Of a stretch of DNA of 54,408 nt, positions 18,884 through 35,725 are shown one piece after another. The translations under genes and the position numbers were made by a program. A model generated the notes under the pieces. It had not been told where the DNA came from, searched no databases, and worked only from the letters and a program-made list of their open reading frames with translations. Source of the stretch: Candidatus Doudnabacteria bacterium (GTDB lineage: Bacteria > Patescibacteriota > Doudnabacteria > UBA920 > O2-02-FULL-48-8). The DNA lies in contig JAHFJG010000008.1 of NCBI GenBank assembly GCA_023246005.1, positions 1 through 54,408 on the forward strand, written 5' to 3'. The first letter of the stretch is position 1. Each line of letters begins with the position of its first letter.

Positions 18884-18911
18884 ATTATACCACAAATTGT
18901 ACTATTGACAA
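18884..18911 (-). promoter_or_regulatory. lysS promoter
   Basis: TTGTCA (18911-18906) is followed by a 16-nt spacer and TATAAT (18889-18884). The leader is 23 nt and has no SD. Confidence 0.5.
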
Positions 18912-18933
18912 AATCTCTAAATCAGTGTAAACT
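18905..18933 (+). promoter_or_regulatory. Promoter of orphan cassette A
   Basis: TTGACA (18905-18910) is followed by a 17-nt spacer and TAAACT (18928-18933). Its -35 overlaps the lysS -35 by 5 bp on the opposite strand. Confidence 0.55.
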
Positions 18934-18972
18934 TGACAAAGTGCTAAAAAAAGAACTGGAGGAAAAAGACAG

Positions 18973-19188
18973 ATGGATCATGAGTTTGAGTTGATTTCGG
19001 GTGGGCAAATCGAAGAGCAAGTTGCTCGGTACGGCTTTCCAACCCTCACGTGCGAACACGTCATTCGCCTATTTCGCACCCGCCGAATTGGCGCAGGCCA
19101 AAAGAAGATCTTGGTCCGCAGGAATGAACAAGGCCATCTCATCGAGGTGGCGTGCTCGGACTGTATTCCTTCCCCGGCCCTCCCGTAG
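18973..19188 (+). CDS. Orphan small protein A (71 aa), G+C-enriched
   Basis: A GGAGG SD (18958-18962) lies 10 nt upstream. G+C is 119/216 by hand count. The gene has its own promoter and terminator. No family was recognised. Confidence 0.5.
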   Translation: MDHEFELISGGQIEEQVARYGFPTLTCEHVIRLFRTRRIGAGQKKILVRRNEQGHLIEVACSDCIPSPALP

Positions 19189-19195
19189 TAACCCG

Positions 19196-19232
19196 GCGCT
19201 TGAAGAACAATCCTCAAGCGCTTTTCTTTTTT
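19196..19232 (+). terminator. Intrinsic terminator of cassette A
   Basis: The stem GCGCTTGA (19196-19203) / TCAAGCGC (19214-19221) is followed by TTTTCTTTTTT. Confidence 0.7.
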
Positions 19233-20148
19233 ACTTTATTTTGCAAACTTGTTTTAAAGCCGCAATATCATCGATGGTTGGCTTGGTATTTTTGCTTTGA
19301 TTCAGATAATACATGATAGACATGGGATTTGAATTGTGCTCCAAACCCAACGCATGCCCCAACTCGTGCGCCAGCACTCGGACTAATTGATTCTGATCAG
19401 TGAATTCATAGATATTAACCTCGCGGCCTGATGAATCGTTTTTGTACAAGCCTTCTTCAAATTCTGGGCCACGTGACGTGCCAACACTATTGTAAGTTGC
19501 TACATTCAAATTCAGCTCCGCGCCTAAGCGGTTCAAAATATTCGCTAGGCCGTTGATATTATCCACAAGCGAATTTAAATTCTGGTTATCTTGGTTGATT
19601 TGACCGCTCTCCGAATTAAGTTGGTTTCGTTGCTGGTTTAGCTGATCAACAACGTTCCTCGGCGCGCCGCCCTGTCTGTTCCAATAATTGACGGTTTGCT
19701 CGTAGGATTGCCGTTGCTGAGTATAACTGGCAATTTCAATTTCCAAATTCTGCTTTTTTTGTTTATACTCCGCAGTCAATGAATCATATTTGGCTTTCAG
19801 GGATTGGTAAGAGCCTTGCGTATCATCAATAGTCAAACCCAAACTTTTCAGCTTATCTGTGGCCTCCTGCCGATAATCATAAACCAAATTGATTTTCAAT
19901 TTTCCATTGGGAGAATATCGATATAAATCTTTGTTAACAGCGGCGTCCCAAATCTGCGCCGCTTGATTGACATCATCTAGAAATTGATCTTGTGTAATGC
20001 CGAATTTCGGATCAAACGTGCCGAGCGAATATGTGATCGGCTGCGAGCACGGCTGAATCAGCCATGGCAAATAACCATGCTCGTAAGCAAAATATCCCCC
20101 GCCAGCAATTATCGCAATCAGTACAATTGTGGTAAATAGCCGGCGCAT
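19231..20148 (-). CDS. Membrane-anchored matrixin-like (M10) zinc metalloprotease with coiled-coil insert
   Basis: It has an N-terminal TM helix, HELGHALGLEH plus a Met-turn (SIMYY), and a ~140-aa Q/N-rich heptad-like insert. Confidence 0.75.
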   Translation of the reverse strand: MRRLFTTIVLIAIIAGGGYFAYEHGYLPWLIQPCSQPITYSLGTFDPKFGITQDQFLDDVNQAAQIWDAAVNKDLYRYSPNGKLKINLVYDYRQEATDKLKSLGLTIDDTQGSYQSLKAKYDSLTAEYKQKKQNLEIEIASYTQQRQSYEQTVNYWNRQGGAPRNVVDQLNQQRNQLNSESGQINQDNQNLNSLVDNINGLANILNRLGAELNLNVATYNSVGTSRGPEFEEGLYKNDSSGREVNIYEFTDQNQLVRVLAHELGHALGLEHNSNPMSIMYYLNQSKNTKPTIDDIAALKQVCKIK

Positions 20149-20754
20149 TTATTCCTGCTTCAAGAGTGGCGCGAATTTGGCTCGTAATTTGGCAATTTTC
20201 GGATTGATCACGACTTGACAGTAAGGTTTGTTCTGATTCTGTTCATAGTAACGTTGATGATAACTTTCTGCTGGCCAAAATTTATCCAGAGGGCGGATTT
20301 CTGTGACAACCGGATCTTTAAATGTTCCGTCATCTTCAAGTTTTTTTATAAATTCTTCAGCTTGCCGCTTCTGTTCCAAAGCGGTATAGAAAACCGCAGA
20401 CCGATACTGCTCGCCGACATCTCCTCCCTGTCGATTCAAGGTTGTCGGATCATGCATGGCAAAAAAGACATTTAATAGATCAGCATACTTAACCACACCC
20501 GGATCAAATTCAATCTTGATTGATTCAACGTGGCCGGTGTTGCCCATAGAAACTTGTTCATAGCTGGGATTAGGGGTCCTGCCGCCAGCATAGCCGGATT
20601 CAACCGACTCAACACCTTTGAGTCGCGTGAAAATGGCCTTAGTGCACCAGAAGCAACCACCGCCGAAAACGGCTGATTGTAGGTTGTTGAGCATGATATC
20701 CCTCCGGTTACGGCCATCAGGTGTGTTTGCCGGAAACTTAAAATTTTTATTCAA
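20149..20754 (-). CDS. msrA: Peptide methionine sulfoxide reductase MsrA
   Basis: It has the GGGCFWC active-site motif. An alternative start is ATG 20694. Confidence 0.9.
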   Translation of the reverse strand: MNKNFKFPANTPDGRNRRDIMLNNLQSAVFGGGCFWCTKAIFTRLKGVESVESGYAGGRTPNPSYEQVSMGNTGHVESIKIEFDPGVVKYADLLNVFFAMHDPTTLNRQGGDVGEQYRSAVFYTALEQKRQAEEFIKKLEDDGTFKDPVVTEIRPLDKFWPAESYHQRYYEQNQNKPYCQVVINPKIAKLRAKFAPLLKQE

Positions 20755-21208
20755 TATTTATTATTTCGTATTCTGTCTTGCCTGCTGGCGTTTCAACTGG
20801 AATTTTGTCTCCCCTTTTTGCACCAAGCAATGCTCGTCCGACGAGCGACTCGTTTGAAATTTTGCCAGAAGCCGGGTTGGCTTCGTTTGCGCCGACAATT
20901 GTATATTTCAAATCTTTGCCATTCATACGTATGCTGACTGTAGAACCAATGCTAACTAAATTATGATCACTCTTATGCTCAATAATCTGAGCGTTCTTGA
21001 CCATATCTTCAAGCTCCTGAATCCGGCCTTCGATGAAAGCCTGTTCTTCCTTAGCCTGGGCATAGTCAGCGTTTTCAGATAAATCTCCGTGTGAGACAGC
21101 CTCTTGGATTCGCTCAATCACTTCGTGCCTGCGGTCTTCTTTCAGGACTTTTAATTCGTCTTTGAGCTTTTTCAAACCTTCTTCAGTGAGTAGTACGGCT
21201 TTAGACAT
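20747..21208 (-). CDS. greA: Transcription elongation factor GreA
   Basis: The 153-aa product has a coiled-coil N-terminus with acidic tip residues and a GreA C-terminal domain. Confidence 0.93.
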   Translation of the reverse strand: MSKAVLLTEEGLKKLKDELKVLKEDRRHEVIERIQEAVSHGDLSENADYAQAKEEQAFIEGRIQELEDMVKNAQIIEHKSDHNLVSIGSTVSIRMNGKDLKYTIVGANEANPASGKISNESLVGRALLGAKRGDKIPVETPAGKTEYEIINIE

Positions 21209-21220
21209 ATTTTTCGATTC

Positions 21221-21246
21221 TTATAAAAGGCCCCCGACTGGGGTCC
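21221..21246 (-). terminator. Intrinsic terminator after mntH
   Basis: On the minus strand GGACCCC-AGUC-GGGGGCC is followed by UUUUAUAA. Confidence 0.55.
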
Positions 21247-21254
21247 TTGATTAC

Positions 21255-22535
21255 TTATTCGTGAATAATATACCAAATCGTAAGAATACTGGCAAGACCC
21301 ATTACCGAGGTGATCAGCCAGCCAAAAAATTTAATAACAGAGCCATTGACCCATTCCTTCATGACTTTCTGATTGGAAGACAACAATACAATGACAGCCA
21401 AAATAAACGGCGAGATAAGTCCGTTTAAAACTGCGGAATAAATCAACATTTTAATCACGTCTAAATGAAAAAAATTCATAAACAAACCCACTAGCATGGA
21501 GAGCGTGATTACTCCGTAGAATGCATAAGCCTGATTAAATTTATGATACAGACCTTCGCGCCAGCCCAAGCTTTCTGAAATTGCATAAGACGACGATCCG
21601 GCCAGTACAGGAACAGCCAGCATACCGGTGCCAATGATTCCTAAAGTAAACAACAAATAAGCCAAATTTCCGCCTAAGGGCTTGAGCGCCAAAGCGGCTT
21701 GAGCCGCGTCTTTGATATCTGTAATCCCATTAGCAAAAAGAGTAGCGCTACAAACTGCGATAATAAAAAACATTACCAGGTTTGATAAAAACATTCCTCC
21801 CCAAACGTCAAAGCGCATTCTGCTAATATCGGCCAAGCTCGTGTTCTCCTCGCGCTGTTTAATGGTGGTTTTGCCTGCTTTGATCTGCTCTTCGACTTCC
21901 TGCGAAGTCTGCCAGAAAAACAAATATGGCGAAATTGTAGTGCCCAAAATCGCGGTCAATAAAAACAAACTTTGCTTGTTAAAAACAATGCTCGGAACAA
22001 CCAAATGTTGCAGTGCCTGCGCCCAGTTAATATCAATGATCAGTCCAGTCAAGACATATGACAACAGCACCAAAGCCAGCCACTTAAGCGCTCTTGCATA
22101 AGATCTGTAAGCTGTAAAAATTTGTAAATATAGACTAAGCAATGCAAATGCGATGACAAGTACTTCAAAATTTATCGGTATTAACAATTGTAAAGATTTA
22201 GCCATGATCCCCAGATCAGCCCCTAGATTAAACGTATTGGCAACAAGCAACAAGCTAGCGCACAAATATAAAATCCATCTGGGATAATATATTCTAATCG
22301 CTCCAGCCAAACCACGGCCTGTAACAATTCCAATCCGCGCGCACATTTCCTGGACCACAGCCATGAGGGGAAACGTCAGAAGCGCAGTCCACAAAAAATT
22401 ATAACCGTAAGAGGCGCCAGCTTGCGAGTAAGTAGCAATCCCCGATGGATCATCATCAGCAGCCCCAGTCGTTAAGCCCGGCCCCAGCATGTGCCAATAT
22501 TCCTGGATTTTTATTTCGGCTTTGTTTTTGTCCAT
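21255..22535 (-). CDS. mntH: NRAMP-family divalent metal transporter
   Basis: It has about 11 TM helices, and the N-terminal segment GPGLTTGAADDDPSGIATYSQAGASYGY is typical of NRAMP/MntH. Confidence 0.88.
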   Translation of the reverse strand: MDKNKAEIKIQEYWHMLGPGLTTGAADDDPSGIATYSQAGASYGYNFLWTALLTFPLMAVVQEMCARIGIVTGRGLAGAIRIYYPRWILYLCASLLLVANTFNLGADLGIMAKSLQLLIPINFEVLVIAFALLSLYLQIFTAYRSYARALKWLALVLLSYVLTGLIIDINWAQALQHLVVPSIVFNKQSLFLLTAILGTTISPYLFFWQTSQEVEEQIKAGKTTIKQREENTSLADISRMRFDVWGGMFLSNLVMFFIIAVCSATLFANGITDIKDAAQAALALKPLGGNLAYLLFTLGIIGTGMLAVPVLAGSSSYAISESLGWREGLYHKFNQAYAFYGVITLSMLVGLFMNFFHLDVIKMLIYSAVLNGLISPFILAVIVLLSSNQKVMKEWVNGSVIKFFGWLITSVMGLASILTIWYIIHE

Positions 22536-22542
22536 TAGCTAA

Positions 22543-22571
22543 ATTATAGCCTGTCTTGACTTTTAGGGCAA
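22543..22571 (-). promoter_or_regulatory. mntH promoter (predicts a leaderless mRNA)
   Basis: TTGCCC (22571-22566) is followed by a 17-nt spacer and TATAAT (22548-22543). The ATG lies 7 nt downstream. Confidence 0.5.
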
Positions 22572-22584
22572 AAACATTCATGAT
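22556..22584 (+). promoter_or_regulatory. Candidate promoter of orphan cassette B
   Basis: TTGACT (22556-22561) is followed by a 17-nt spacer and CATGAT (22579-22584). The -10 is weak. It interdigitates with the mntH promoter. Confidence 0.35.
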
Positions 22585-22654
22585 GTATTGTCTCTGACAA
22601 AGACGAAAACCGCTTCGCCAACTCGGCCAAGTGACATTAGGAGGAGTACAAGTT

Positions 22655-23119
22655 ATGGCAAAGGTATCTGTCAAACGGTACGTTGAGCAGGTCCGTGACG
22701 GAAGCGAGTACAAAGGTTACCTGAAAATCGCCGAGACCACATTGGACTATGAGCTGAGGTTCGACATCCCGATTGACAAGCTGGATGATTCTGAACTCTT
22801 AGATGGAGTTCATGAAATTCGCCGGGTCTTCCAGCTGACTGTGAAGCGAAACGGAAAGAGGATTGAACTCACCGATGAAGAATATGGCTTCTTCTTCCGG
22901 TTGCTCGTTTTGTTCGCAGTCGAGTTCTACAACAATCCGCGAACTCGTGAAAACAACCAAGGCCTTCTGGGAATGACCTTGCGTGGCAAGGGAGAGATAT
23001 CAGCTTTCGGAGTTTCCTCTTCGATCGGGATTACGAGCAGCAACTCGTATGACATCCCGTCTGGACTGTGTGAGACCTTGAACGCGCCGAAGTTTGGGTG
23101 CGCAATCAACGGCACCTGA
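22655..23119 (+). CDS. Orphan protein B (154 aa), G+C-enriched
   Basis: An AGGAGG SD (22639-22644) lies 10 nt before ATG 22655. The ORF track starts it at GTG 22631. No family was recognised. Confidence 0.5.
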   Translation: MAKVSVKRYVEQVRDGSEYKGYLKIAETTLDYELRFDIPIDKLDDSELLDGVHEIRRVFQLTVKRNGKRIELTDEEYGFFFRLLVLFAVEFYNNPRTRENNQGLLGMTLRGKGEISAFGVSSSIGITSSNSYDIPSGLCETLNAPKFGCAINGT

Positions 23120-23130
23120 ACAATCATGCT

Positions 23131-23214
23131 GGGGACGAAGGTCATCTTGACTTCGTCCCCTCCCCACCATCCCCAAACCCCGACACTACGATCGGGGGTA
23201 AGAGGGATTTTTTT
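23131..23214 (+). terminator. Compound GC-rich terminator of cassette B
   Basis: A 10-bp hairpin GGGGACGAAG/CTTCGTCCCC (23131-23160) is followed by CCCCGA/TCGGGG and a T7 run (23208-23214). Confidence 0.55.
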
Positions 23215-23251
23215 ATTGCCCAAATCTACCCAGGCGAATGCCGAGGTGGGT

Positions 23252-25180
23252 TTACTTTTTATACCTATTCTCTGCCCACCAAGCATACACCGCCTTGGCC
23301 ACTGGTCCGCCCACAGCATAACCTTCCCCGCCGCCTTCGACTAACACTGTCACAGCAATCTGCGGGTTATCCGATGGCGCGTAAGATGTGAACCAAGCAT
23401 GCGCGCGGTTTGGATTATGCGGATCGAACTGAGCAGTGCCAGTTTTGGCAGAGACAGCAATTGGCAGAGTATTAAGAGCCCTGCCAGTGCCCTGGGTTAC
23501 AGTCTGGCGCATACCATCTTGGACTATTTTAATCACATTTGGGTCAAAAATATTCTCAGCTAAAACTTTAGGCATTCCTTTGGCTAAAATTTTCCCATTT
23601 TTATCATTAACTTCATTCAATACATATGGCTGCATGACCCGTCCACCATTCGCAATGGTTGCAGTCCAACTATTAACTTGCAGTGGGGTGGCCAAAACAT
23701 CTCCTTGGCCGATTGATTCATGATATGTATCGCCCAAATACCATGTTTCTTTTTTCACTTGCTTCTTCCAAACAGGATCAGGCACAAGCCCTGGTTTTTC
23801 AGCAGGCAAATCAATTCCTAATTTCTGGCCCAAATAAAACTTCCGCAAATACTCGGCAATCTTATCAGGCCCCAGACCATTCTTCACAGGACTTTTCGGG
23901 TTGCCGCCGCCCACGCTATAAAAATAAATATCTGATGATCTCGCAATAGCCGAATAAATATCCATAATGCCAAGCCCAGATCTTTCATAACCATAAAAAG
24001 CATACTGGCCGACTCGAATCACGCCATCATCTAAAATTTTTGTTTGAGGAGTAACTACTTTTTCTGTTAAGGCAGCAACAGCCATCATGGGTTTGATTGT
24101 TGAACCTGGCGGATACTGGCCGGAAATCGCGCGATTCAAAAAAACATTATCGGAATTAGCGTTAAGCTTGGCATAATCATCTTTGGAAATTCCCTTTGCA
24201 AATAAATTATTATCAAACGACGGCAAGGAAACCAAAGCCATGATCTCGCCAGTATAAGGATTGGTAATCACCGCGGCCGCTTTTTTGCTTTTAACTACAT
24301 TCAGCTCGGCAGTCAAGTTATTATAGAGTGTTTTCTGTAAATCATAATCAATATTAAGTTTAACATTGTTGCCAAGAACAGGTAGCACTTCCGCCAGTGT
24401 CCGCTTATAATTTCCCTGCGCATCAATTTCTGCCTGCTTCCTGCCATTAGTACCATGCAAAAATTGTTCGTACCAATACTCAATGCCGGTTTTGCCAATA
24501 TCATCATTTGACGCGTAAGTATTATTCTTTTGAATTAATTCGTCTTGGGTAATTTTGCCAGTGTAACCTACTAAGTGGGTAAAGACTAACGAGTCTTTAT
24601 AATCGCGGATAGCGCTATCATCAGCCACAAAACCTTTTAAATCATTCTGCTTAGCAATCAAAATTAAAGCTTGATCTTTGGTAATGTCTTGGACTAAAGT
24701 CTGGCCTTGATACGATTTTGGCTGCATTTTTGCGATAATGTCTTGCAATTCCGAGTTGTCTTTACCTAATATAGCGGCAACTTTTGTCAGTTCAGCAAGA
24801 AATTGAGATTGATCAAGCGGCAAATCAGCTGTAATAACATCTAGTTCAAAACTCGGAGTATTCGAGGCAATCACCTTGCCAAAGCGATCCAAGACCAAGC
24901 CTCTGGGAGCTAAAACATATTGGATGCGAAGTTTATTGCCTTCAGCTAAAATTTTATACTCCGAGCCTTTGATAACTTGCAAAAAAAGAATCCGACCAAA
25001 CAAAAAACACAAACAAACAAAAATAATTCCTCCCAAGACGCGATAATTGACTGAATCGCGCTCATCATCCAATGTTGTAGCATCATCAATTTGCAAATCC
25101 AAAAACGCCTCATCGTAGCTTAGATTTTTGTTCGCGTGGATTTTAGCCTTTAAATTTTTGATTTCAAATGGGTCACCCAT
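23252..25180 (-). CDS. mrdA: Penicillin-binding protein 2 (elongasome transpeptidase)
   Basis: It has an N-terminal TM helix and the SxxK (STIKP), SSD and KTGTA motifs. It lies downstream of mreBCD. Confidence 0.9.
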   Translation of the reverse strand: MGDPFEIKNLKAKIHANKNLSYDEAFLDLQIDDATTLDDERDSVNYRVLGGIIFVCLCFLFGRILFLQVIKGSEYKILAEGNKLRIQYVLAPRGLVLDRFGKVIASNTPSFELDVITADLPLDQSQFLAELTKVAAILGKDNSELQDIIAKMQPKSYQGQTLVQDITKDQALILIAKQNDLKGFVADDSAIRDYKDSLVFTHLVGYTGKITQDELIQKNNTYASNDDIGKTGIEYWYEQFLHGTNGRKQAEIDAQGNYKRTLAEVLPVLGNNVKLNIDYDLQKTLYNNLTAELNVVKSKKAAAVITNPYTGEIMALVSLPSFDNNLFAKGISKDDYAKLNANSDNVFLNRAISGQYPPGSTIKPMMAVAALTEKVVTPQTKILDDGVIRVGQYAFYGYERSGLGIMDIYSAIARSSDIYFYSVGGGNPKSPVKNGLGPDKIAEYLRKFYLGQKLGIDLPAEKPGLVPDPVWKKQVKKETWYLGDTYHESIGQGDVLATPLQVNSWTATIANGGRVMQPYVLNEVNDKNGKILAKGMPKVLAENIFDPNVIKIVQDGMRQTVTQGTGRALNTLPIAVSAKTGTAQFDPHNPNRAHAWFTSYAPSDNPQIAVTVLVEGGGEGYAVGGPVAKAVYAWWAENRYKK

Positions 25181-25665
25181 GATTGTACGACTGAATAATA
25201 TTTATATACGGGATAAGTAAAAAGTAAATTAAAAAATAAATTTGAGATCAGTTTATCACCAAAAAAATATTTATAATCCATGACGTGATTCAGATGAAAA
25301 ACTAAAAAAATACTGTTTAATCCAAGAAATACAAAAAAATAAATAATTGTTGTAATTGCAACCGAACTAAACAAAATCAACATGCTTGGCTCTTTGTGCA
25401 GCAGCGTATGCAGAATGAAATACATAATTAAAAAAATCGAAAACATAGTCATGCTGATAATTCCATCTGCTGAACCTGAAATCAAATCCAGCATGACCCC
25501 CCCGATCAAAGCTATGGCCAAAGAAGTGTCAAAATCAGAAATAACGATTGCGACCACGAGAAAAACCAAAATCAGATTTACGGCAGTTATCTGAAGCGGC
25601 ATTAGCGCGCCGATTTGGATAACTAACAAAAAGAAAATTGAAAACAACCAAATCAAATACTTCAT
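25150..25665 (-). CDS. mreD: Rod shape-determining protein MreD
   Basis: This small polytopic membrane protein lies between mreC and mrdA. Confidence 0.7.
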   Translation of the reverse strand: MKYLIWLFSIFFLLVIQIGALMPLQITAVNLILVFLVVAIVISDFDTSLAIALIGGVMLDLISGSADGIISMTMFSIFLIMYFILHTLLHKEPSMLILFSSVAITTIIYFFVFLGLNSIFLVFHLNHVMDYKYFFGDKLISNLFFNLLFTYPVYKYYSVVQSWVTHLKSKI

Positions 25666-26462
25666 TGGACAACAAAAATAAACCTTATGTTTCGCAAATC
25701 CGCAGCTGGCGAGATGTAGGCTTTTTGAAATAAATCCGTGGAATTCGATCGCAAGGCAGCAACCTGGCCAATCAGAAGTCCTCTTGGAAAATCATTGGAA
25801 AGTCCAGAAGTTATCACTTGATCACCGGATTTGATCAAATCGTTTTGGGTGACTAAATCAAGGGTTAAACCAAGCCCGTGCTCGCCGCGAATTAGTCCTC
25901 TTGCGGCCGAATCCACTACTTCGGCATTCACTACAATTGACGGATCAGTAATCAGCGTAACTTCGGCGCTGGCAGGATAAAGCTTAGTCACCTTGCCAAC
26001 CAGAAGCCCTGGAGCTGCTACAACTGGTTGATTAAGACTAATCGAATAATTCTGGCCTTTATCAATAATTATTGTTTGCGTAAAACCAGTGGCGTCCAAA
26101 GTCAAAACCTCGACTGGCACAAGGTTAGGTTGCGATTGTTGCTTAAAGCTTAAAGCTTTGCGCAAAGCCGAATTTTCATCTTCGGCTGATCTAAGCCTGG
26201 CATTGTCAAAGGACAGCGCATCAATTTTTTGGTTTAAAGTCGCATTGTCAGAAACCAAATGCCTGATTGTAAAAAATGTTTGAAAAACTTCTTTAACGCT
26301 ATTGGTTGCAAGTGTGACTTTATTCGTAGTAAAACCATAGACGCGAAAAAAACCGTCTTTGAAAAGACCCAAATAACCTTTGGCGTCCAGAACGACAAAT
26401 ACTGCCAAGATGACAAAAATACTAAAAATTTTCGTAAAAGTTTTGGTGTAGATAAATCTCAT
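25662..26462 (-). CDS. mreC: Rod shape-determining protein MreC
   Basis: It has a TM helix, a coiled coil and MreC beta domains (PVVAAPGLLVGKVT; GLLIGQV). Confidence 0.88.
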   Translation of the reverse strand: MRFIYTKTFTKIFSIFVILAVFVVLDAKGYLGLFKDGFFRVYGFTTNKVTLATNSVKEVFQTFFTIRHLVSDNATLNQKIDALSFDNARLRSAEDENSALRKALSFKQQSQPNLVPVEVLTLDATGFTQTIIIDKGQNYSISLNQPVVAAPGLLVGKVTKLYPASAEVTLITDPSIVVNAEVVDSAARGLIRGEHGLGLTLDLVTQNDLIKSGDQVITSGLSNDFPRGLLIGQVAALRSNSTDLFQKAYISPAADLRNIRFIFVVQ

Positions 26463-26464
26463 AG

Positions 26465-26517
26465 ATCAGATAACAGTGAACAGATAACAAACTTGGCGAT
26501 GTTGTCTGTTATCTGAT
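26465..26517. promoter_or_regulatory. Perfect 12-bp inverted repeat in the mreB-mreC spacer
   Basis: ATCAGATAACAG (26465-26476) pairs with CTGTTATCTGAT (26506-17). (C)AGATAAC(A) motifs are repeated in both arms. Confidence 0.5.
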
Positions 26518-26530
26518 AACTGTTCATTGA

Positions 26531-27589
26531 TTACCTCGGAATTTGTTCAAACTCGGTTAGAACCAGGACATCTTTCAGCATTGGCAAATCCTCAAGCACA
26601 ATCCCAGTCCCCCGCACGACTGTGGTCAAAGGATCATCAGACACTGTCACTGGCATTTGGGTTTCTTCGGCAATTAGTTGATCCAAACCCCGAAGCAGCG
26701 CCCCGCCGCCAGCCAAAGTAATCCCTCGTTCCATGATGTCAGCCACCAGTTCAGGCGGAGTTTCTTCCACCACAGCTTTGATATTATTGACGATCAATTT
26801 AATCGAACGAGAAATGGCATGACGAATTTGATCATCTGTGACTTTGATTTCTTTTGGCAAGCCAGTAACCAGATCGCGCCCCCGGATCTCTGCCTTCAGC
26901 CGATCTTTCATTTGAATAGCCGAGCCAATTTTAATTTTGACTTCTTCGGCCGTCCTCTCTCCAACCAACAAATTAAATTCATCCCGCGCAAACTGAATAA
27001 TATTTTCATTCATCTCGTCTCCGGCCACGCGGATACTGCGCGAAGTCACAATCCCGCCAAGAGAAATCACGGCAATCTCTGCGGTCCCGCCGCCAATATC
27101 AACAATAAACGATCCTGCCGCGTCTTGTACAGGCAATCTTGCGCCTATGGCTGCGGCCATAGGTTCTTCGATCAAGAAAGCCATACGAGCTCCTGCATTG
27201 AGTGCCGCGTCCTGAACCGCTCGTTTTTCAACTTCGGTCACTCCTGAAGGAATACCAATCACTACTCGCGGTCGAGACAAAAAACCAAAGGTCGCTTGGC
27301 TAACCTTATCTATAAAATACCGGAGCATCTGTTCGGTAACTTCAAAGTCCGAAATCACGCCATCAACCAGGGGCCGGTGCGCGACGATGTGAGAAGGTGT
27401 GCGGCCGACCATGCGTTTGGCTTCATCGCCAATCGCCAAAATCTGCTTAGTCTTTTGGTTAATCGCCACCACAGATGGCTCATTAATAACAATACCCTTG
27501 CCTTTGACATAAACAAGAGTATTGGCTGTACCCAGATCAATTCCAATGTCTTTCGAAAATTTATCAAAAACGAAGTCTAATATCGCCAT
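26531..27589 (-). CDS. mreB: Rod shape-determining protein MreB
   Basis: Actin-fold protein with the motifs DLGTANTLVY and DIGGGTAEIAV. Confidence 0.95.
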   Translation of the reverse strand: MAILDFVFDKFSKDIGIDLGTANTLVYVKGKGIVINEPSVVAINQKTKQILAIGDEAKRMVGRTPSHIVAHRPLVDGVISDFEVTEQMLRYFIDKVSQATFGFLSRPRVVIGIPSGVTEVEKRAVQDAALNAGARMAFLIEEPMAAAIGARLPVQDAAGSFIVDIGGGTAEIAVISLGGIVTSRSIRVAGDEMNENIIQFARDEFNLLVGERTAEEVKIKIGSAIQMKDRLKAEIRGRDLVTGLPKEIKVTDDQIRHAISRSIKLIVNNIKAVVEETPPELVADIMERGITLAGGGALLRGLDQLIAEETQMPVTVSDDPLTTVVRGTGIVLEDLPMLKDVLVLTEFEQIPR

Positions 27590-27625
27590 CAGGAAGAAAT
27601 TAATGAGGGTTTTTTTATTTTTTTG

Positions 27626-28861
27626 TTATGCTCTAAGCGTTTTTGTTAAGTTTTTAATATTTACGATTTGAGATTCTTTGCTATCGCGAGCTTTAATTTC
27701 TACAGAGTCTTCTTTCAAGGTCTTGTCTGACATCAAAATTCTAATCGGAATCCCAATTAAGTCAGCATCAGCAAATTTTTCGCCGGCCGAGGCATCCCTT
27801 TGATCATATAATACTGAAAATTTTTGTTCCTGTAAAGTTGCATATAATTTATCCGAAGCCTCCCTATCAGACGCAATATTTATAAGATGCAAATCAACCG
27901 GAGAAACGGATTTGGGCCAGATAATTCCTTTATCATCATGGAATTTTTCTACAATCACGCCCATTAACCGTGAAATTCCCAAACCATAACACCCCATCAC
28001 TGGATATTGCTTCTTGTTATCCTTGTCTTTAAAACCCAAATCAAAGTCTTGGCCGTATTTTTGGCCTAAATCAAAGACATTGCCGACCTCTGACGCTTTG
28101 GCAAAATTTAGTTTTCCATTGCCACACTTTGGGCACTTGTCCCCGGTTTTTTGTTTAGCAATTTCCAGATTCACGCAAAACTCGCAAACATCGCAATACA
28201 AAATATTATCCTCGCCGGCATCAGTCAGCACCATGAACTCATAGGAAATTTTGTTGCTGAAAGCGCCTCCAGATGCTTCTGTGACTTTGGCTACTAAACC
28301 AATCCGCTCAAAAATTTTCAGATAAGCTTGTTTGACTATTTCGTAATACCTTTCAAAATCCTGTTGGTTCTCATGAAAGCTGTACATATCCTTCATGTAA
28401 AATTCCCGACCGCGAAGAAGGCCGGATTTGGATCGCAATTCATCACGATACTTCCAGCCGATTTGATATACGCTTTTTGGCAAATCTTTATAAGTATCCA
28501 CATACTTCATCACCAGCGGCATGACCACTTCTTCTTCACTTTGGCCCAAAGCGTAATCCTTTTCGGTTCGGCTTTTGATTTTAAATAGAACATCCACTTT
28601 GTCCCAAGCGCCGGTTTTTTTCCAAATTTCCGCCGGATGCAAAGCCGGCATCAAAATCTCTTGTCCGCCATTTGCATCCATTTCTTCCCGCACAATTTGG
28701 GCGATTTTTTTCAAAGTCAAAAAGCCCAGAGGCAAATATGAATATACGCCAGCCATAAGTTTATTGACAAAACCAGCCCGAACCAAAAGTTGGGCGTTCG
28801 TGGTTTCCTCGTCTTTCGGCGCTTGCCGCAAAGTTTTTGTGAATAATTCAGATTGCAACAT
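27626..28861 (-). CDS. proS: Prolyl-tRNA synthetase (short form without INS editing domain)
   Basis: The start was chosen at ATG 28861 (MLQSELF...). It has a class IIa core. A CxxC-N18-CxxC mini-insert sits where bacterial ProRS carries the INS domain. Confidence 0.9.
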   Translation of the reverse strand: MLQSELFTKTLRQAPKDEETTNAQLLVRAGFVNKLMAGVYSYLPLGFLTLKKIAQIVREEMDANGGQEILMPALHPAEIWKKTGAWDKVDVLFKIKSRTEKDYALGQSEEEVVMPLVMKYVDTYKDLPKSVYQIGWKYRDELRSKSGLLRGREFYMKDMYSFHENQQDFERYYEIVKQAYLKIFERIGLVAKVTEASGGAFSNKISYEFMVLTDAGEDNILYCDVCEFCVNLEIAKQKTGDKCPKCGNGKLNFAKASEVGNVFDLGQKYGQDFDLGFKDKDNKKQYPVMGCYGLGISRLMGVIVEKFHDDKGIIWPKSVSPVDLHLINIASDREASDKLYATLQEQKFSVLYDQRDASAGEKFADADLIGIPIRILMSDKTLKEDSVEIKARDSKESQIVNIKNLTKTLRA

Positions 28862-28867
28862 AAAGTA

Positions 28868-28896
28868 ATTATAGCAAGCCGCAAAAACCTTGACAA
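28868..28896 (-). promoter_or_regulatory. proS promoter (predicts a leaderless mRNA)
   Basis: TTGTCA (28896-28891) is followed by a 17-nt spacer and TATAAT (28873-28868). The ATG lies 6 nt downstream. Confidence 0.55.
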
Positions 28897-28918
28897 AAGG
28901 GCGCAAAATACTTTAATG
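28890..28918 (+). promoter_or_regulatory. Promoter of cassette C
   Basis: TTGACA (28890-28895) is followed by 16-17 nt and TTTAAT/TTAATG (28912-28918). Its -35 overlaps the proS -35 by 5 bp. Confidence 0.5.
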
Positions 28919-29148
28919 TGCAGTGTTCATCAAAGGATTACGAAGTAATTGAAGCTTGCGTCCTTGGCTATATTGCCAGACATGAAGAGCAGCGTATTTT
29001 TCAGGTTCCCGAACGCCGAGAATTAGTTCTGAACATGAGCAAAGGGATCGGTCAATTGCTACATGTGCTCATCATGAAGGCCTTGCAAAAGCGCCTCAGC
29101 AACGCGCACGAACGTGAAGTGTTTCATTGGGCTCAAACGACCGATTAA
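28918..29148 (+). other. Cassette C transcription unit; coding status unresolved (76-codon GTG ORF or ~300-nt RNA)
   Basis: The GTG start coincides with the predicted -10, so it may not be transcribed. There is no SD. G/C-ending codons occur only in the second half. The unit ends at a strong terminator. Confidence 0.3.
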
Positions 29149-29171
29149 ATCCTTCTCACTCTCATCGCTCA

Positions 29172-29222
29172 CCCCATGCCATACCAGACGCAAAAACGTC
29201 TAGGTACAGGGGTTTTCTTTTT
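29172..29222 (+). terminator. Intrinsic terminator of cassette C
   Basis: The structure is CCCC..TACC-[AGACG/CGTCT]-GGTA..GGGG followed by TTTTCTTTTT. The tail GGGGTTTTCTTTTTGCC is identical to that at 34659-34675. Confidence 0.65.
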
Positions 29223-29268
29223 GCCAAAAAGCGAGAAACAAAAATTGACATCACATCAATCTTACTTA

Positions 29269-29308
29269 ATTCTACGCATTTTGACCGATCGGTCAATTTA
29301 CGTATAAT
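29269..29308. promoter_or_regulatory. Palindromic operator TTGACCGATCGGTCAA with -10-like hexamers on both sides (3' of the regulator gene)
   Basis: A perfect 16-bp palindrome lies at 29281-29296. On the + strand TTGACC-16-TATAAT ends at 29303-29308. On the - strand TTGACC-16-TAGAAT ends at 29274-29269. Confidence 0.55.
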
Positions 29309-29319
29309 TCTATTTATCA

Positions 29320-29841
29320 CTATTTGTACATTACTCTACCTTCAATAATACTGACATTAAGCTCAATCTTTAACTCTTTCAACAACTCTTTAAATTCAGG
29401 ATGTAATTCCCAAGGTCCGATCATTACGCTTTTTTGTAAATTAATAAATCCATTATCTTTTAGAAACCTTCTCAAGAACCTTCTTGCTTTGCGCTTGGCT
29501 TCAGGAATATCAAATATAACGATTGTTGCGAAACCGTTGACTTTAGTAATTTTCGGCTTCTTCGAATATGAATATTTCAAACTTTTGGCTCTGCCTAAAT
29601 CAGTGATAGTATAATAAAATTTCTTGTCCTTTTTGACTTTCTTGATTAAACCTTTTCTATTCAATTCCCAAAATGCCCGGGAAACCTTATATCGATCGTA
29701 ATAACGTAGTCTTTGAATGTGATGATTCTTGCCTTCGAATGGATAAGGAATCGCTTCCCCAATATCTCTCAAAAACCACAAAATCTCGTTTGTGACCGAC
29801 TCAACCCTATTTCTTATTTTCCTTTTAGTTGATCTGTTCAT
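29320..29841 (-). CDS. wHTH + Cas2/VapD-like-fold regulator (PaaX-like), paralog 1
   Basis: It has a winged-helix segment (YKVSRAFWELNRKGLIKK...YYTITDLGRAK) and a ferredoxin-like module (TIVIFDIPE..RRFLRRFLKDNGFINLQKSVMIG..VSIIEG). It is a paralog of 34756-35229. Confidence 0.7.
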   Translation of the reverse strand: MNRSTKRKIRNRVESVTNEILWFLRDIGEAIPYPFEGKNHHIQRLRYYDRYKVSRAFWELNRKGLIKKVKKDKKFYYTITDLGRAKSLKYSYSKKPKITKVNGFATIVIFDIPEAKRKARRFLRRFLKDNGFINLQKSVMIGPWELHPEFKELLKELKIELNVSIIEGRVMYK

Positions 29842-29845
29842 ATCA

Positions 29846-29885
29846 AGTATACGTGTTTTGACCGATCGGATATTTTACGTATAAA
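29846..29885. promoter_or_regulatory. Operator/promoter region upstream of paralog 1
   Basis: The 27-nt core at 29858-29884 matches 29281-29307 at 24/27 positions, in direct orientation. On the - strand a TATACT -10 lies 4 nt before the ATG. On the + strand there is TTGACC-16-TATAAA. Confidence 0.5.
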
Positions 29886-29912
29886 CACAAAATTTTCTTC
29901 TATCAAAAATGT

Positions 29913-31034
29913 TTAACTAAATATCCTTTGGAACAAATGCTTGAATTGCGTGCCATAATGATTTACGTCCTTGAACGTGACAACGATCATAAGCAAAATC
30001 AATAACGCAAAGCCGATTGTGTTGGCGATTTGTTCAACCTTTATATCTAGTTTCCGGCCGCGGATTTTTTCAATTATCAGAAACAAGACTCGCCCGCCGT
30101 CCAAGGCTGGAAACGGTATGGCGTTGATAATTGCCAAATTCACTGACAAGACAGCTATAAATTGCAAAAGATAAATAAACCCAAGCGCCGTGACATCGCG
30201 GGTCAAAACCGCAATGCCCACCGGGCCGGAAAGCGCGGCCGCCACCTGCTGGCCTTGCAAAAACTGTACGATTAAAGACATGAAGGTTGTCAAAGTTAGA
30301 GCAATCAAACCAAAAACTGCTATGGCTCCCCTGAATGGGGCTTCATACCAAGGATATGAAACAAACGCCACGCTTGCCAATGCCACTCCCAGCGGTCCTT
30401 GGCCTTGTGGCGGATTAAGACGCGGGGTAATTGACCGGTCAAACACATCAGACCCGCGTTTAATCGTATACGTCGTTGCTTGACCAGCGTCTTTCTCTGT
30501 GGCGGTCTGCGCATCTTGAATGGAATTAATCGGCTGATTATTGATTTTTAAAATTGAATCGCCAACTTTCAGTCCAGCCACAGCAGCAGGAGTGTTGTCG
30601 CCGACCTCAACCACTCCAACACTGACTGTACTAATGCGCGCTGATTGCGGAAGCTGGTCACCCTCGCCAATTATAGTCGGTAACCCCAGTCCCATGCCAA
30701 TTGAAATCAAAACCCAGGCCAAAACAACGTTCATGGACACGCCGGCAATCAAAACCGTGAATCTCTGCCATGCTGATTTGTTGCCAAAACTTTCTGGATC
30801 TGATAAATCAGAACCATCTTCACCGACAATTTTTACAAATCCGCCAAGTGGAATTAGATTAATCGAATAAAGAGTTTGGCCGCGCCTGATGCCAAACAAT
30901 CTTGGCGGAAAACCAAATCCAAATTCATCCACCCGCATACCAGCTCGTTTGGCCATGACAAAGTGCCCGAGTTCATGCACAAACACGAGAATGCCGAGAA
31001 TGATTATAAAGACGATTATGGTAAGTAGGATCAT
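29913..31034 (-). CDS. rseP: Site-2 protease RseP/M50 family
   Basis: It has HELGHF, a PDZ domain and a C-terminal NxxPxxxLDGG motif (NAIPFPALDGG). Confidence 0.9.
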   Translation of the reverse strand: MILLTIIVFIIILGILVFVHELGHFVMAKRAGMRVDEFGFGFPPRLFGIRRGQTLYSINLIPLGGFVKIVGEDGSDLSDPESFGNKSAWQRFTVLIAGVSMNVVLAWVLISIGMGLGLPTIIGEGDQLPQSARISTVSVGVVEVGDNTPAAVAGLKVGDSILKINNQPINSIQDAQTATEKDAGQATTYTIKRGSDVFDRSITPRLNPPQGQGPLGVALASVAFVSYPWYEAPFRGAIAVFGLIALTLTTFMSLIVQFLQGQQVAAALSGPVGIAVLTRDVTALGFIYLLQFIAVLSVNLAIINAIPFPALDGGRVLFLIIEKIRGRKLDIKVEQIANTIGFALLILLMIVVTFKDVNHYGTQFKHLFQRIFS

Positions 31035-31054
31035 TAAATTGAATTATGAATATC

Positions 31055-31087
31055 GAATTAGGAATTAGTGCCCGGGATTCCTGATTC
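31055..31087. repeat. 11-bp hairpin built from GGAAT repeats in the frr-rseP spacer
   Basis: GAATTAGGAAT (31055-65) pairs with ATTCCTGATTC (31077-87) around a CCCGGG-containing loop. The 3' arm lies in three tandem (AT)TCCTG/GATTCCT units (31077-31096). It is related to 3737-3791. Confidence 0.45.
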
Positions 31088-31094
31088 CTGATTC

Positions 31095-31655
31095 CTAAAT
31101 TGTCATTACTTCTTTTTCTTTGGCCTCTGAAACTTTCTTGATTTCGTCATTGTATTTATCCACGATTTTTTGCAATTCTTCACGCCCGGAAATTTTGTCA
31201 TCTTCGCTAATATGTCCATCTTTTTCCATTTTTTGGATTTCTTTCCAAATATCTTCTCTGGCATTACGAATTGAGACTCGCGCCTTCTCACCCATCTGGC
31301 TGACAATCTTGACTAATTCTTTTCTTCGCTCTTCTGTCATCTGCGGGATCGTGAGGCGAATATACGTGCCGTCATTCACAGGATTAATTCCCAGATTTGA
31401 AGTTTGCACCGCTTTCTCAATATCCTTTAAGGCGTTTTTGTCATAGGGCTGAATCGCGATTGAACGCGGCTCCGGTACTGTAATCTGGGCAATCGCAATC
31501 AGTTCGGCAATGGAACCATAATATTCTACTTGCAAATGCTCGACTAATCCGGCTGACGCGCGCCCGGTTCGCAAAGTTGCTAATTCAGATCTTAAATGCT
31601 CCAAGGTTTTCTGAAACTCTGATTCTTTTTTGGAAATTATATCGTGATTGAACAT
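31095..31655 (-). CDS. frr: Ribosome recycling factor
   Basis: The 186-aa product has the canonical RRF sequence (LRTGRAS..LV..V.VEYYG). Confidence 0.95.
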   Translation of the reverse strand: MFNHDIISKKESEFQKTLEHLRSELATLRTGRASAGLVEHLQVEYYGSIAELIAIAQITVPEPRSIAIQPYDKNALKDIEKAVQTSNLGINPVNDGTYIRLTIPQMTEERRKELVKIVSQMGEKARVSIRNAREDIWKEIQKMEKDGHISEDDKISGREELQKIVDKYNDEIKKVSEAKEKEVMTI

Positions 31656-31656
31656 A

Positions 31657-32721
31657 TTATTGTCTTGGGGCGGCTAATCCCAAATAAATTAAATTATTGG
31701 CTTGGGGATTGATTAATATCCTACGCACTTCTGATTGAGTGGGCAAAATTTTCGTTTCCCAAGTCAAGCCGCCGTTCGCACTCTTAAATATGGTTGAGCT
31801 AACAGCTACAAACAAATTATTCGAATTGTTAGGATTAACTGACAAGGCAGACACACGAAGCGAGGTGTTCTTCTCGGGTAATCCCAAGAAAGACCAATTT
31901 ACGCCGTCATTAGTTGAACGATACAAACCTTCTTGCGTTCCTAAATATAACACTCCCGGCTGTCGCTGGTCTAATGCCATATCATAAAACGCGCTGACCG
32001 AAGACGGGGCTTGATCAAAGCTGCTTACCGAAGATTTAGTCAAAAGATCAGAAATCATGGTCCAGCTAATACCTTGATCCGTACTCTTAATTAATCCTTT
32101 ATGAAAAGTTAAGGCATAAGCCGTGCCAGAAGTATTAAACAGAATTTTCGTTATGCGATCAGCAAAATCTTTCGAAGCCTGCCACGTATGCCCTTTATCA
32201 ACTGAACGGAGAATTTCACCTGTTGTTAATCCTGCTAATACCAAAGAGTTGCTGCGCCCAACTGCTATGGACAAGACCGTATTATTTTTTGAAGGTTCGG
32301 TATAGATGTCGACCCAAGACACGCCGCCATCCAAACTTTTAATTATCTTGCCATTGGCGCCGACAATGCCAGCCGCATAAATTACATTTGATTGTAATGG
32401 ATCAAGCGCTATATCCGCAATTGTGATGCCAGATAATATATATCGCCAGGATTTGGCCGCATCTTCGGATTTATATATCCCGTTTGATGAACCCAGATAA
32501 AGCGTGTCTGGTCTGCTGGGATCAAATACCAGAGAGTTGACGCCGATGCCGCTGATGTCGCCTTTTTTTTGCAAAATATTGGCCGCGGAGTAAGTCTCGC
32601 CGCTGTCTTCTGACTTCACCACACCTCGTGTCCCAGTGCCCAAATCAAACAACCCGCCAGTCAAATCGCAGCTAGCCGCCATAAATGTTAAGCCTAAAAG
32701 CAGAATGAAAAATTTCTTCAT
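31657..32721 (-). CDS. BNR/Asp-box repeat beta-propeller lipoprotein (Ycf48-like)
   Basis: It has a lipobox (LTFMAASC) and repeated SxDxGxTW-type motifs (SLDGGVSW, SVDKGHTW, STDQGISW, STNDGVNW, SANGGLTW). Confidence 0.7.
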   Translation of the reverse strand: MKKFFILLLGLTFMAASCDLTGGLFDLGTGTRGVVKSEDSGETYSAANILQKKGDISGIGVNSLVFDPSRPDTLYLGSSNGIYKSEDAAKSWRYILSGITIADIALDPLQSNVIYAAGIVGANGKIIKSLDGGVSWVDIYTEPSKNNTVLSIAVGRSNSLVLAGLTTGEILRSVDKGHTWQASKDFADRITKILFNTSGTAYALTFHKGLIKSTDQGISWTMISDLLTKSSVSSFDQAPSSVSAFYDMALDQRQPGVLYLGTQEGLYRSTNDGVNWSFLGLPEKNTSLRVSALSVNPNNSNNLFVAVSSTIFKSANGGLTWETKILPTQSEVRRILINPQANNLIYLGLAAPRQ

Positions 32722-33455
32722 GTGTTTATCATCAAATTAGTTAGCAATAATTTTGAATTCACATTCTGATCCAGATATCGTCGGGACAAAGCGACTTGGC
32801 TGATTTTTTGAGCCAAATTTTTCGAAGCGCTGATATGCAGTTCAGTTTGCAGAATTTTGAGCCAAAGATCTAAAATATTTTTTATTTCTGAAGTTTCCAA
32901 ATCGGCAATATCATAAGCGGCAATTAATTTATCAGCCAGTTGTGCTTGAGTAAAAATTTTATAAAACTCCGCCGCTCTGCTAGATTCTTCAGTGACTTCT
33001 TCCGGCCTTTCCAAAACACCAAAAGTTATTTTTTGCGCACGAGACAAAATTGTTTTTGGCAGACGCTGAGCATTGCTTGTAATCAAAATAATATATGTGT
33101 AGTTCTTTGGCTCTTCCAGCGATTTGAGCAAAGCATTGGCTGCTTCGGTAGTCATCTCATCAGCGTGATTAATCACCGCGACTTTATATTTGGCTGAATA
33201 AGGCTTAAGAGCAAGTTTATAGATCAAATCGCGAATCTGCTCAATCTTAATGCCCTCGTTGCTATTGATTTCCAAAAGATCAGGATGGAAATCCTTGTCT
33301 GACCCAATTAACTCATGCGCCAATTTCATGGCAATGGTTTTCTTGCCAATACCTTCAGGCCCGGCAAAAATAAAAGCATGCGCCAGCTTGCCACGCTCAA
33401 GGCCGTTTTCCAAAAATTCTAATTGTTTCTTATGCCCCAAAATACCTTCAAACAT
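32718..33455 (-). CDS. holB: DNA polymerase III delta' subunit
   Basis: It has an AAA+ clamp-loader fold with the motifs HAFIFAGPEGIGKKT and SRAQ. Confidence 0.85.
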   Translation of the reverse strand: MFEGILGHKKQLEFLENGLERGKLAHAFIFAGPEGIGKKTIAMKLAHELIGSDKDFHPDLLEINSNEGIKIEQIRDLIYKLALKPYSAKYKVAVINHADEMTTEAANALLKSLEEPKNYTYIILITSNAQRLPKTILSRAQKITFGVLERPEEVTEESSRAAEFYKIFTQAQLADKLIAAYDIADLETSEIKNILDLWLKILQTELHISASKNLAQKISQVALSRRYLDQNVNSKLLLTNLMINT

Positions 33456-33461
33456 GGCTGA

Positions 33462-33490
33462 ATTATAACAGTTTGGCCTAGTATTGACAA
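33462..33490 (-). promoter_or_regulatory. holB promoter (predicts a leaderless mRNA)
   Basis: TTGTCA (33490-33485) is followed by a 17-nt spacer and TATAAT (33467-33462). The ATG lies 6 nt downstream. Confidence 0.55.
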
Positions 33491-33512
33491 AAGCCTACAA
33501 ATTATGTATATT
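33484..33512 (+). promoter_or_regulatory. Promoter of the D-E orphan operon
   Basis: TTGACA (33484-33489) is followed by a 17-nt spacer and TATATT (33507-33512). Its -35 overlaps the holB -35 by 5 bp. Confidence 0.6.
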
Positions 33513-33550
33513 TTTATGTTGCACATTCCGTGCATGAAGGAGGAATATGC

Positions 33551-34039
33551 TTGAAGGGCATGATCGTTTACTCATTCGCTTGGCGAAAAAAAGGACACAG
33601 TCCTTGCAATATTCGCTTAGCAGAAGGAGCTAAGCGAATCATCGAAGCCCAGGACGAACCAGTTTTGGTTTTCGCCCAGCGCACTACAGCGCTGGTTCTC
33701 AAAGAGCTTAGCGTGGAATGTCAGATCGTACCGAAGCGGTCAAGTTACGAAGGATCCGAAGTGCTCACTCGGCAGCCCGCAGAGGTATTTAAGGAAAACG
33801 GAATCACTGAAGTCATTCCCGTGGCTCAGCCGTTTCTGCAACTGACGAAGTGCATTCAACTGGTTCACAAGGAAGGTTTTCGGACTCCGTCGTTTTTCAA
33901 ACTCGTGTCCCTGATCGGTTGGATCGGATTTGATCGAGAATCAGTTCAACCTTGGACGCGAGGTCTGTTCCGGCTGGTGTTCTACACTGCCAGACAGATT
34001 CTGTTCAGCTACAAGCCACCGCCAGAACTTTCAGAATAA
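33551..34039 (+). CDS. Orphan protein D (~160 aa), G+C-enriched
   Basis: An AAGGAGG SD (33537-43) lies 7 nt before TTG 33551. Alternative starts are GTG 33530 and ATG 33560. Codon usage is foreign (CTG, CGG, CCG). Any DUF218/YdcF-like resemblance is only weak. Confidence 0.5.
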   Translation: MKGMIVYSFAWRKKGHSPCNIRLAEGAKRIIEAQDEPVLVFAQRTTALVLKELSVECQIVPKRSSYEGSEVLTRQPAEVFKENGITEVIPVAQPFLQLTKCIQLVHKEGFRTPSFFKLVSLIGWIGFDRESVQPWTRGLFRLVFYTARQILFSYKPPPELSE

Positions 34040-34180
34040 CCTCCACTCCGTTAGCAAAACGGGAAATGAGTAATTTGCTTTAGAGAATCTATTTCTTCTC
34101 AAACTCTCGAATGAATCGCTCAGGACTCGCGGCATGTCGCTGCGGTCCCCCGTCTGCGGACGGAGAGGGAGGGTAGGCCG

Positions 34181-34540: not shown

Positions 34541-34576
34541 GAGTTCAGGGGACCCGCGGCAATCATGCAAAGTGCT

Positions 34577-34621
34577 GATGGGACATTCTCCCATCCCCGG
34601 CAACAGCTTGTCTGTTGCCGG
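34577..34621 (+). other. Two GC-rich hairpins in the 3' UTR of gene E
   Basis: The hairpins are GATGGGA/TCCCATC (34577-34595) and CCGGCAACAG/CTGTTGCCGG (34597-34621). They lie directly upstream of the terminator. Confidence 0.5.
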
Positions 34622-34626
34622 GCACG

Positions 34627-34672: not shown

Positions 34673-34724
34673 GCCCAAAATTATTACTAACTGATTATTA
34701 GTAATATATTACATATTGTCTATA

Positions 34725-35697: not shown

Positions 35698-35725
35698 AAA
35701 ATGCTCAAAAATAAAAAACCAACTT

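Follow-up and report, generated by a model that had tools for sequence, protein, structure and literature searches.

Predicted compact divergent promoter pairs with a shared −35 box between housekeeping operons and small accessory cassettes in a Doudnabacteria-like contig

The DNA analysed here, referred to as the window, is an entire natural contig of 54,408 bp from a Doudnabacteria-like Patescibacterium. Its minus strand carries nearly all of the housekeeping genes, and at four junctions (lysS/A, mntH/B, proS/C and holB/D) one of these genes is transcribed divergently from a small accessory unit on the plus strand, here called cassettes A to D. The promoters of lysS/A, proS/C and holB/D are probably compact divergent sigma-70-type pairs, in which the shared box is the −35 of the accessory promoter and can be used by the core promoter without the latter depending on it. 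These three junctions represent an ordinary kind of compact divergent promoter, real and partly conserved, and are very probably not a gene-capture site.

A re-reading of the letters places the hexamers of all four sites where the original prediction had located them (Table 1). As it had also described, the −35 hexamers of lysS/A, proS/C and holB/D overlap by 5 of their 6 bp on opposite strands (18905-18911, 28890-28896 and 33484-33490), and the plus strand reads TTGACAAAA at all three TTGTCA sites. Three of the six copies of TTGACAAAA found in the window are located at these junctions. At mntH/B the two −35 boxes are interleaved (22556-22571), each lying inside the spacer of the partner promoter, again in agreement with the earlier description. 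The −10 hexamers of the paired promoters are separated by 38-39 bp (30 bp at mntH/B), and the start sites computed from the sequence would lie at a distance of 63-64 bp in the pairs with A, C and D, and of 55 bp in mntH/B. With consensus-like −35 and −10 elements on both strands, spaced within the expected 16-18 bp, and with overlapping upstream elements, the junctions correspond to back-to-back divergent sigma-70 pairs.

Table 1. Predicted promoter elements and cassettes at the four divergent junctions of the window.
Feature	Coordinates	Strand	Elements
lysS operon promoter	18911-18884	-	TTGTCA 18911-18906, 16-nt spacer ending in TG, TATAAT 18889-18884; ATG 18860, 23 nt past −10
Cassette A promoter	18905-18933	+	TTGACA(AAA) 18905-18910, 17-nt spacer, TAAACT 18928-18933; 10/12 matches
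Cassette A body	18973-19231	+	GGAGG Shine-Dalgarno, 71-aa orphan open reading frame 18973-19188, hairpin 19195-19221 then U-run
mntH promoter	22571-22543	-	TTGCCC 22571-22566, 17-nt spacer, TATAAT 22548-22543; ATG 22535, 7 nt past −10; 10/12 matches, without TG
Cassette B promoter	22556-22584	+	TTGACT 22556-22561, 17-nt spacer, CATGAT 22579-22584; 9/12 matches
Cassette B body	22655-23215	+	AGGAGG Shine-Dalgarno, 154-aa open reading frame 22655-23119, two hairpins then U-run
proS promoter	28896-28868	-	TTGTCA 28896-28891, 17-nt spacer ending in TG, TATAAT 28873-28868; ATG 28861, 6 nt past −10
Cassette C promoter	28890-28917	+	TTGACA(AAA) 28890-28895, 16-nt spacer, TTTAAT 28912-28917; 11/12 matches
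Cassette C body	28918-29226	+	~300-nt predicted transcribed region, terminator hairpin 29171-29213 plus UUUUCUUUUU
holB operon promoter	33490-33462	-	TTGTCA 33490-33485, 17-nt spacer ending in TG, TATAAT 33467-33462; ATG 33455, 6 nt past −10
Cassette D promoter	33484-33512	+	TTGACA(AAA) 33484-33489, 17-nt spacer, TATATT 33507-33512; 11/12 matches
Cassette D body	33519-34663	+	5′ hairpin TGCACATTCCGTGCA, AGGAGG Shine-Dalgarno, D1 33551-34039, D2 34181-34540, double terminator 34596-34663

The minus-strand promoters of lysS, proS and holB match the consensus at 11 of 12 positions and carry in addition a TG one base 5′ of the −10 (TGnTATAAT). In three of the four core genes (proS, holB and mntH, lysS being the exception) the ATG follows the −10 so closely, by 6-7 nt, that it coincides with a predicted transcription start about 7 nt past the −10, a feature that speaks against chance matches. 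The transcripts of proS, holB and mntH are accordingly predicted to be leaderless, with a predicted leader of ~17 nt for lysS. The short distance is kept across the window and three related loci (L005, L006 and L007), at 6-9 nt for proS and 6-7 nt for holB. In these features the core promoters conform to the extended −10 (TGn) promoters and leaderless mRNAs described previously (PMC2613000; PMC6028130).

On the plus strand, the promoters have the form TTGACAAAA-N13/14-TAnnnT/TTTAAT, and each of them precedes a small self-contained unit composed of one or two open reading frames (ORFs) and a hairpin/U-run terminator. A G+C-rich hairpin with a U-run behind it closes each of the four cassettes, and a strong Shine-Dalgarno sequence precedes four of the five cassette ORFs (A at 18973, B at 22655, D1 at the TTG at 33551 and D2 at 34181). 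AGGAGG-type motifs are present at 4 of the 4 clear cassette ORFs, whereas no more than 5 of 47 core genes show so much as a Shine-Dalgarno-like 4-mer. The G+C content is 0.46-0.52 in cassettes A, B and D and 0.42 in C, the window as a whole having 0.416. To judge from their terminators, Shine-Dalgarno sequences and composition, the units on the plus strand are true accessory cassettes of unusual composition. The divergent pairs look real, as had been proposed. The division of translation signals extends over the whole window: core genes rarely have a Shine-Dalgarno sequence, with leaderless transcripts predicted for many of the first genes, while the four clear cassette ORFs are strongly Shine-Dalgarno-led.

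Comparison with related loci, numbered L005, L006, L007, L008, L010 and so on, reveals that this architecture recurs. Relatives keep the gene order holB-BNR-frr-rseP-(paaX)-proS-mreBCD-pbp2-(mntH)-greA-msrA-M10-lysS, and the size and content of the intervals upstream of proS, holB and lysS differ among species. L005 and L010 show the back-to-back geometry ATTATA-N15/16-TTGACAA-N15-17-−10 at proS, and L006 shows it at holB. The proS sequence common to the window, L005 and L010 is GAATTATA-N16-TTGACAAAA-N13/14-T(T/G)TAAT, the cassette C promoter being kept in position with TGTAAT as the −10 of both relatives; similarity among the three ends after the plus-strand −10, and the L005 site codes for a different small Cys-rich ORF. 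At holB, the window and L006 have the same back-to-back core, the cassette D promoter is conserved in L005, L006 and L007, and the 5′ hairpin TGCACATTCCGTGCA and the Shine-Dalgarno sequence are kept in the window, L005 and L006. In the cargo of these last three the first ORF differs and the second (D2) is homologous. Cargo varies between species at the proS, holB and lysS sites, and TTGACAAAA with an A-run spacer and a −10 starts divergent units in L005, L006, L007, L008 and L010.

The register in which the two promoters share their −35 has been lost at least twice in these relatives. At holB the TTGACAAAA promoter is displaced by 75 bp (L005) and 41 bp (L007) from TGGTATAAT, and at lysS in L008 TTGACAAAA lies 37 bp away from the core −10. 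Furthermore, TTGTCAA was not found at the cassette-free sites upstream of proS in L007, L012 and L013 or of lysS in L012 and L014. Because the box moves by 37-75 bp with the accessory promoter and is absent where there is no cassette, it would belong to the accessory promoter. It had been claimed that TTGTCA is the −35 of the essential genes; it is probably not an element that they need, since the core promoters are of the TGnTATAAT class and the orthologous holB and lysS promoters in L005, L007 and L008 use TGGTATAAT with the box displaced. The −35 of TGnTATAAT promoters is dispensable in E. coli (PMC2613000), and the shared box is probably optional for the core genes, which probably do not need it. 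As a separate observation, within the 75-bp insertion between the holB −10 and the divergent promoter of L005 (~4440-4560), TTTGACAAAATAG is duplicated in tandem and an inverted repeat of 20 nt is present.

The expectation from chance was estimated at two scales. A scan for hexamer pairs over the whole window under strict rules gave 2 pairs against a mean of 0.29 in dinucleotide shuffles (maximum 3), and 6 against 1.63 under relaxed rules, so that the window-wide excess is only modest. All three shared-−35 pairs are confined to the ~360 bp of divergent spacers, and it is therefore their location that bears most of the significance. The original prediction had also called for a genome-wide search for further pairs centred on this motif; run over the window and 80 related loci (1.4 Mb), the search recovered ATTATA-N15-17-TTGACAA 7 times against 0.6 in shuffles, and in 6 of 6 full architectures ATTATA faces proS, holB or lysS. 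The architecture is enriched, and TTGACAAAA itself, often with an A-run spacer, extends beyond such pairs: in L010 it also heads a promoter of greA, and in L090 it precedes a homologue of D1 at a locus unrelated to these.

The model that best accommodates these results is that an extended −10 promoter (TGnTATAAT) would start the housekeeping operon on the minus strand, without a leader for proS and holB and with a short one for lysS, while a TTGACAAAA-N13/14-TAnnnT promoter would start the small accessory unit, provided with its own intrinsic terminator, on the plus strand. TTGACAA is nearly its own reverse complement, and a single heptamer could thus act as the −35 in both directions. An accessory −35 placed 15-16 bp from the core −10 would read as TTGTCA at the correct 16-17-bp spacing, which would provide the core promoter with a −35 of 5 matches out of 6. 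Packing in this register would save space in a highly compact genome, and both promoters may benefit from it to some extent.

The original prediction also held that two polymerases cannot occupy such a pair simultaneously, and this appears to be sound reasoning: a distance of 63-64 bp (55 at mntH/B) separates the predicted starts of each pair, and the open complex at TGnTATAAT promoters still protects −55 to +20 (PMC2613000), so that the region would probably accommodate one polymerase at a time. The further claim that cassette and core expression should be anticorrelated does not follow from exclusive binding. In E. coli, bidirectional promoters compete only when one direction is strongly activated, and basal activity was too low for competition at 5 of 5 promoters tested (PMC12825309). 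A trade-off in expression might accordingly be measurable only if one of the two promoters were occupied for much of the time.

Several points weigh against reading the junctions as compact pairs with an optional shared box. The plus-strand −10 elements are the weaker ones, with 4-5 matches out of 6, and that of cassette C lacks the A at position 2. The coding status of the 76-aa ORF of cassette C is doubtful, because it has no Shine-Dalgarno sequence and its start lies inside or directly at the −10. The footprint and the TGn rules are those of E. coli and are assumed to hold for the Patescibacterial polymerase. Finally, sharing in register is seen at three unrelated loci of one genome and in 6 of 9 instances across relatives; this exceeds what would be expected from packing only, and selection for sharing the −35, that is, functional coupling, is possible. 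The main model of the original prediction amounts to a toggle, with the shared −35 selected to render cassette and housekeeping transcription mutually exclusive and anticorrelated. Such a design would agree with the repeated register in the window and at the orthologous sites of L005, L006 and L010, with the overlap of footprints that makes steric exclusion plausible, and with the capacity of bidirectional promoters to compete if one side is strong (PMC12825309). We nevertheless consider it unlikely, as sharing has been lost without apparent harm at holB (L005 and L007) and lysS (L008), the TGnTATAAT promoters of lysS, proS and holB probably do not need the box, the basal activities tested in E. 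coli fall below the range of competition, and there is no evident rationale for orphan accessory genes to throttle lysS, proS and holB. Compaction with optional mutual use is a better fit to the recurrence and loss of the register than an obligatory toggle. A rather speculative view, which we consider unlikely, is that in Doudnabacteria a near-palindromic −35 beside leaderless extended −10 housekeeping promoters constitutes a conserved "landing pad", where the promoter core stays from species to species and small, Shine-Dalgarno-led, GC-richer cargo is repeatedly exchanged. If true, new genes would gain ready-made expression physically coupled to an essential promoter.

The possibility raised originally that the shared motif (TTGACAAAA / TTTTGTCAA) marks a recombination site at which foreign cassettes are captured beside core promoters draws on the between-species variation of the cargo past the conserved promoter at proS, holB and lysS, on the atypical composition and Shine-Dalgarno-led translation of the cassettes, and on the Cas2-like/PaaX-like genes that adjoin cassettes C and D. 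It is nonetheless highly improbable. Pfam scans of essentially all ORFs of the contig detected no integrase, transposase or other site-specific recombinase, target duplications and flanking or att-like repeats occur only at the level expected by chance, nothing beyond chance 9-mers is common to the left and right ends, and the spacers of the three sites are unrelated in sequence. Moreover, homology between species extends past the motif to take in the −10 and, at holB, also the 5′ untranslated region and the Shine-Dalgarno sequence, so that the junction does not lie at the motif. The presence of TTGACAAAA at greA and at the unrelated locus in L090 also argues against a capture function, and the PaaX-like proteins have palindromic sites of their own, different from the motif. 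Another explanation, in which the plus-strand hexamers are chance matches produced by a core −35 that is nearly palindromic and transcription of the cassettes begins at some other place, could appeal to the modest window-wide excess and to the imperfect plus-strand −10s, and we regard it as very unlikely too. The core ATG and the start codon of the cassette are no more than 95-119 nt apart, and a plus-strand promoter must therefore lie between them; in addition, its −35, A-run spacer and −10 are conserved across species even when detached from the core promoter, and the architecture is enriched over shuffles. A mobile promoter module copied to the three junctions was also considered and rejected, as they have the consensus elements alone in common.

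Back-to-back (overlapping) divergent sigma-70 promoters were reportedly classified by Beck and Warren (1988). Examples are found among the pairs formed by LysR-type regulators and their targets and in tetR/tetA of Tn10. Like these, the pairs of the window lie on opposite strands with common upstream DNA in a short intergenic region, and binding at one promoter can hinder the other; unlike them, no regulator gene is involved, the partners being a housekeeping operon and a small cassette, and the overlap consists of exactly one near-palindromic −35 heptamer. A literature search for overlapping −35 pairs gave nothing useful. In symmetry-type bidirectional promoters the −10 is shared and the start sites are 7-29 bp apart, with a mode of 18 (Warman et al., bioRxiv 10.1101/2020.01.31.928960; PMC12825309). 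The junctions described here resemble them in that the symmetry of an element would serve both strands and binding of one polymerase would exclude the other, but it is the −35 that is shared and the predicted starts are ~63 bp apart; none of the four pairs has predicted starts within 7-29 bp. The arrangement also recalls the integron platform (Pc and attI with attC cassettes), where a resident promoter expresses exchangeable small cassettes. It differs from the integron in having no integrase, no attI/attC-like repeats and a single unit per site, each cassette bearing its own Shine-Dalgarno sequence and terminator, and in the scattering of the sites between core operons.

Together, these data offer a first sequence-level view of promoter architecture in an uncultivated lineage of the candidate phyla radiation, with extended −10, largely leaderless core operons almost devoid of Shine-Dalgarno sequences, and Shine-Dalgarno-led accessory units under TTGACAAAA promoters. 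They also suggest that the symmetry of a −35, beyond that of the −10 alone, is usable in both directions. If the coupling has a regulatory effect, it would provide a simple way of tying accessory expression to housekeeping promoters in tiny genomes.

The window is related by its MreB most closely to Candidatus Doudnabacteria and other Patescibacteria metagenome-assembled genomes (MAGs) at 88-70% identity, and Pfam confirms LysS, Nramp/MntH, PBP2, MreBCD, ProS, RRF and HolB, among others. Proteins of the window are recorded in NCBI, ENA and Logan, and cassettes A and B occur as well on near-identical contigs of other samples. None of the five cassette ORFs matched Pfam, PHROGs, PADLOC or NCBIfam. 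The homologue search with the cassette A ORF returned nothing but itself. The protein of cassette B is a member of an uncharacterised family, ~150 aa in length, with 253 representatives at 50% identity and a C-terminal PKFGC motif; its AlphaFold2 model is confident (pLDDT, predicted local distance difference test, 92.6), with no fold match in PDB or BFVD, and its sequence profile had no match in PDB. D1, whose start is most likely the TTG at 33551 (MKGMIVY...), is part of a family that spans the Patescibacteria and comprises 62 clusters at 32-73% identity (56-73% for most of them), the named members of which come from Patescibacteria, Parcubacteria and Paceibacterota MAGs. In L087 and L088 the D1 homologue sits within an island of small ORFs without Pfam matches. 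D2 represents a narrow family with a handful of relatives. Known structured RNAs were also considered as the content of the cassettes, and this option was dropped: Rfam (gathering and E-value thresholds) and a tRNA scan found nothing, four of the five ORFs carry Shine-Dalgarno sequences, and B, D1 and D2 each fall into a family of proteins.

The 3′ ends of the cassettes share a terminator T-run motif that is also present at core terminators. TTGCC(C)AAAA follows terminator U-runs at 23204-23225, 29209-29230 and 34659-34680, upstream of 50804 and, in L014, upstream of lysS. At core terminators this motif doubles as the −35 of the next promoter, and the 3′ ends of B, C and D are not followed by any gene in that direction.

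Palindromes of 40 nt with the core (T)TGACCGATCGGTCAA, at 29268-29307, 29845-29884, 34715-34754 and 35236-35275, flank each of two paralogous genes (29320-29841 and 34756-35229, minus strand) that code for winged helix-turn-helix plus Cas2-like (PaaX_M) proteins. These palindromes hold promoter-like hexamers in both directions, occur at no other place in the window and are likely autoregulatory operators. As they are confined to the surroundings of these two genes, a role of the PaaX/Cas2-like proteins in integrating cassettes or in regulating the shared promoters was rejected. A palindrome of another sequence, CTTGCATACTGTCCCGTATGCAAGTATAA, occurs at 12160-12216 and 12709-12783; it overlaps the promoter of a Trp-repressor-like gene (12217-12708) as well as that of the gene that follows, and is probably the operator of that repressor.

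The window contains another type of divergent arrangement at 39473-39515, where murB (minus strand) and a PEGA-domain gene (plus strand) lie 43 bp apart with a common palindromic −10, ATAATTATAA; judged by its elements, this is a classic symmetry-type bidirectional promoter. Further along, on the minus strand at 35715-35995, a conserved promoter (CTTGACC-17-TATAAT) precedes a predicted non-coding transcript of ~230 nt with a terminator. Identity of this region is ~78% with L005 and L006; with L010 it is 82% over 87 nt. RNAalifold predicts 58 pairs, 17 of them with compensatory changes. No Rfam family was assigned to the region, a candidate for a new structured small RNA of Doudnabacteria. Lastly, a ParE/YafQ-type toxin gene (2232-2489, minus strand) and a small upstream partner ORF (2491-2766) adjoin rplU.

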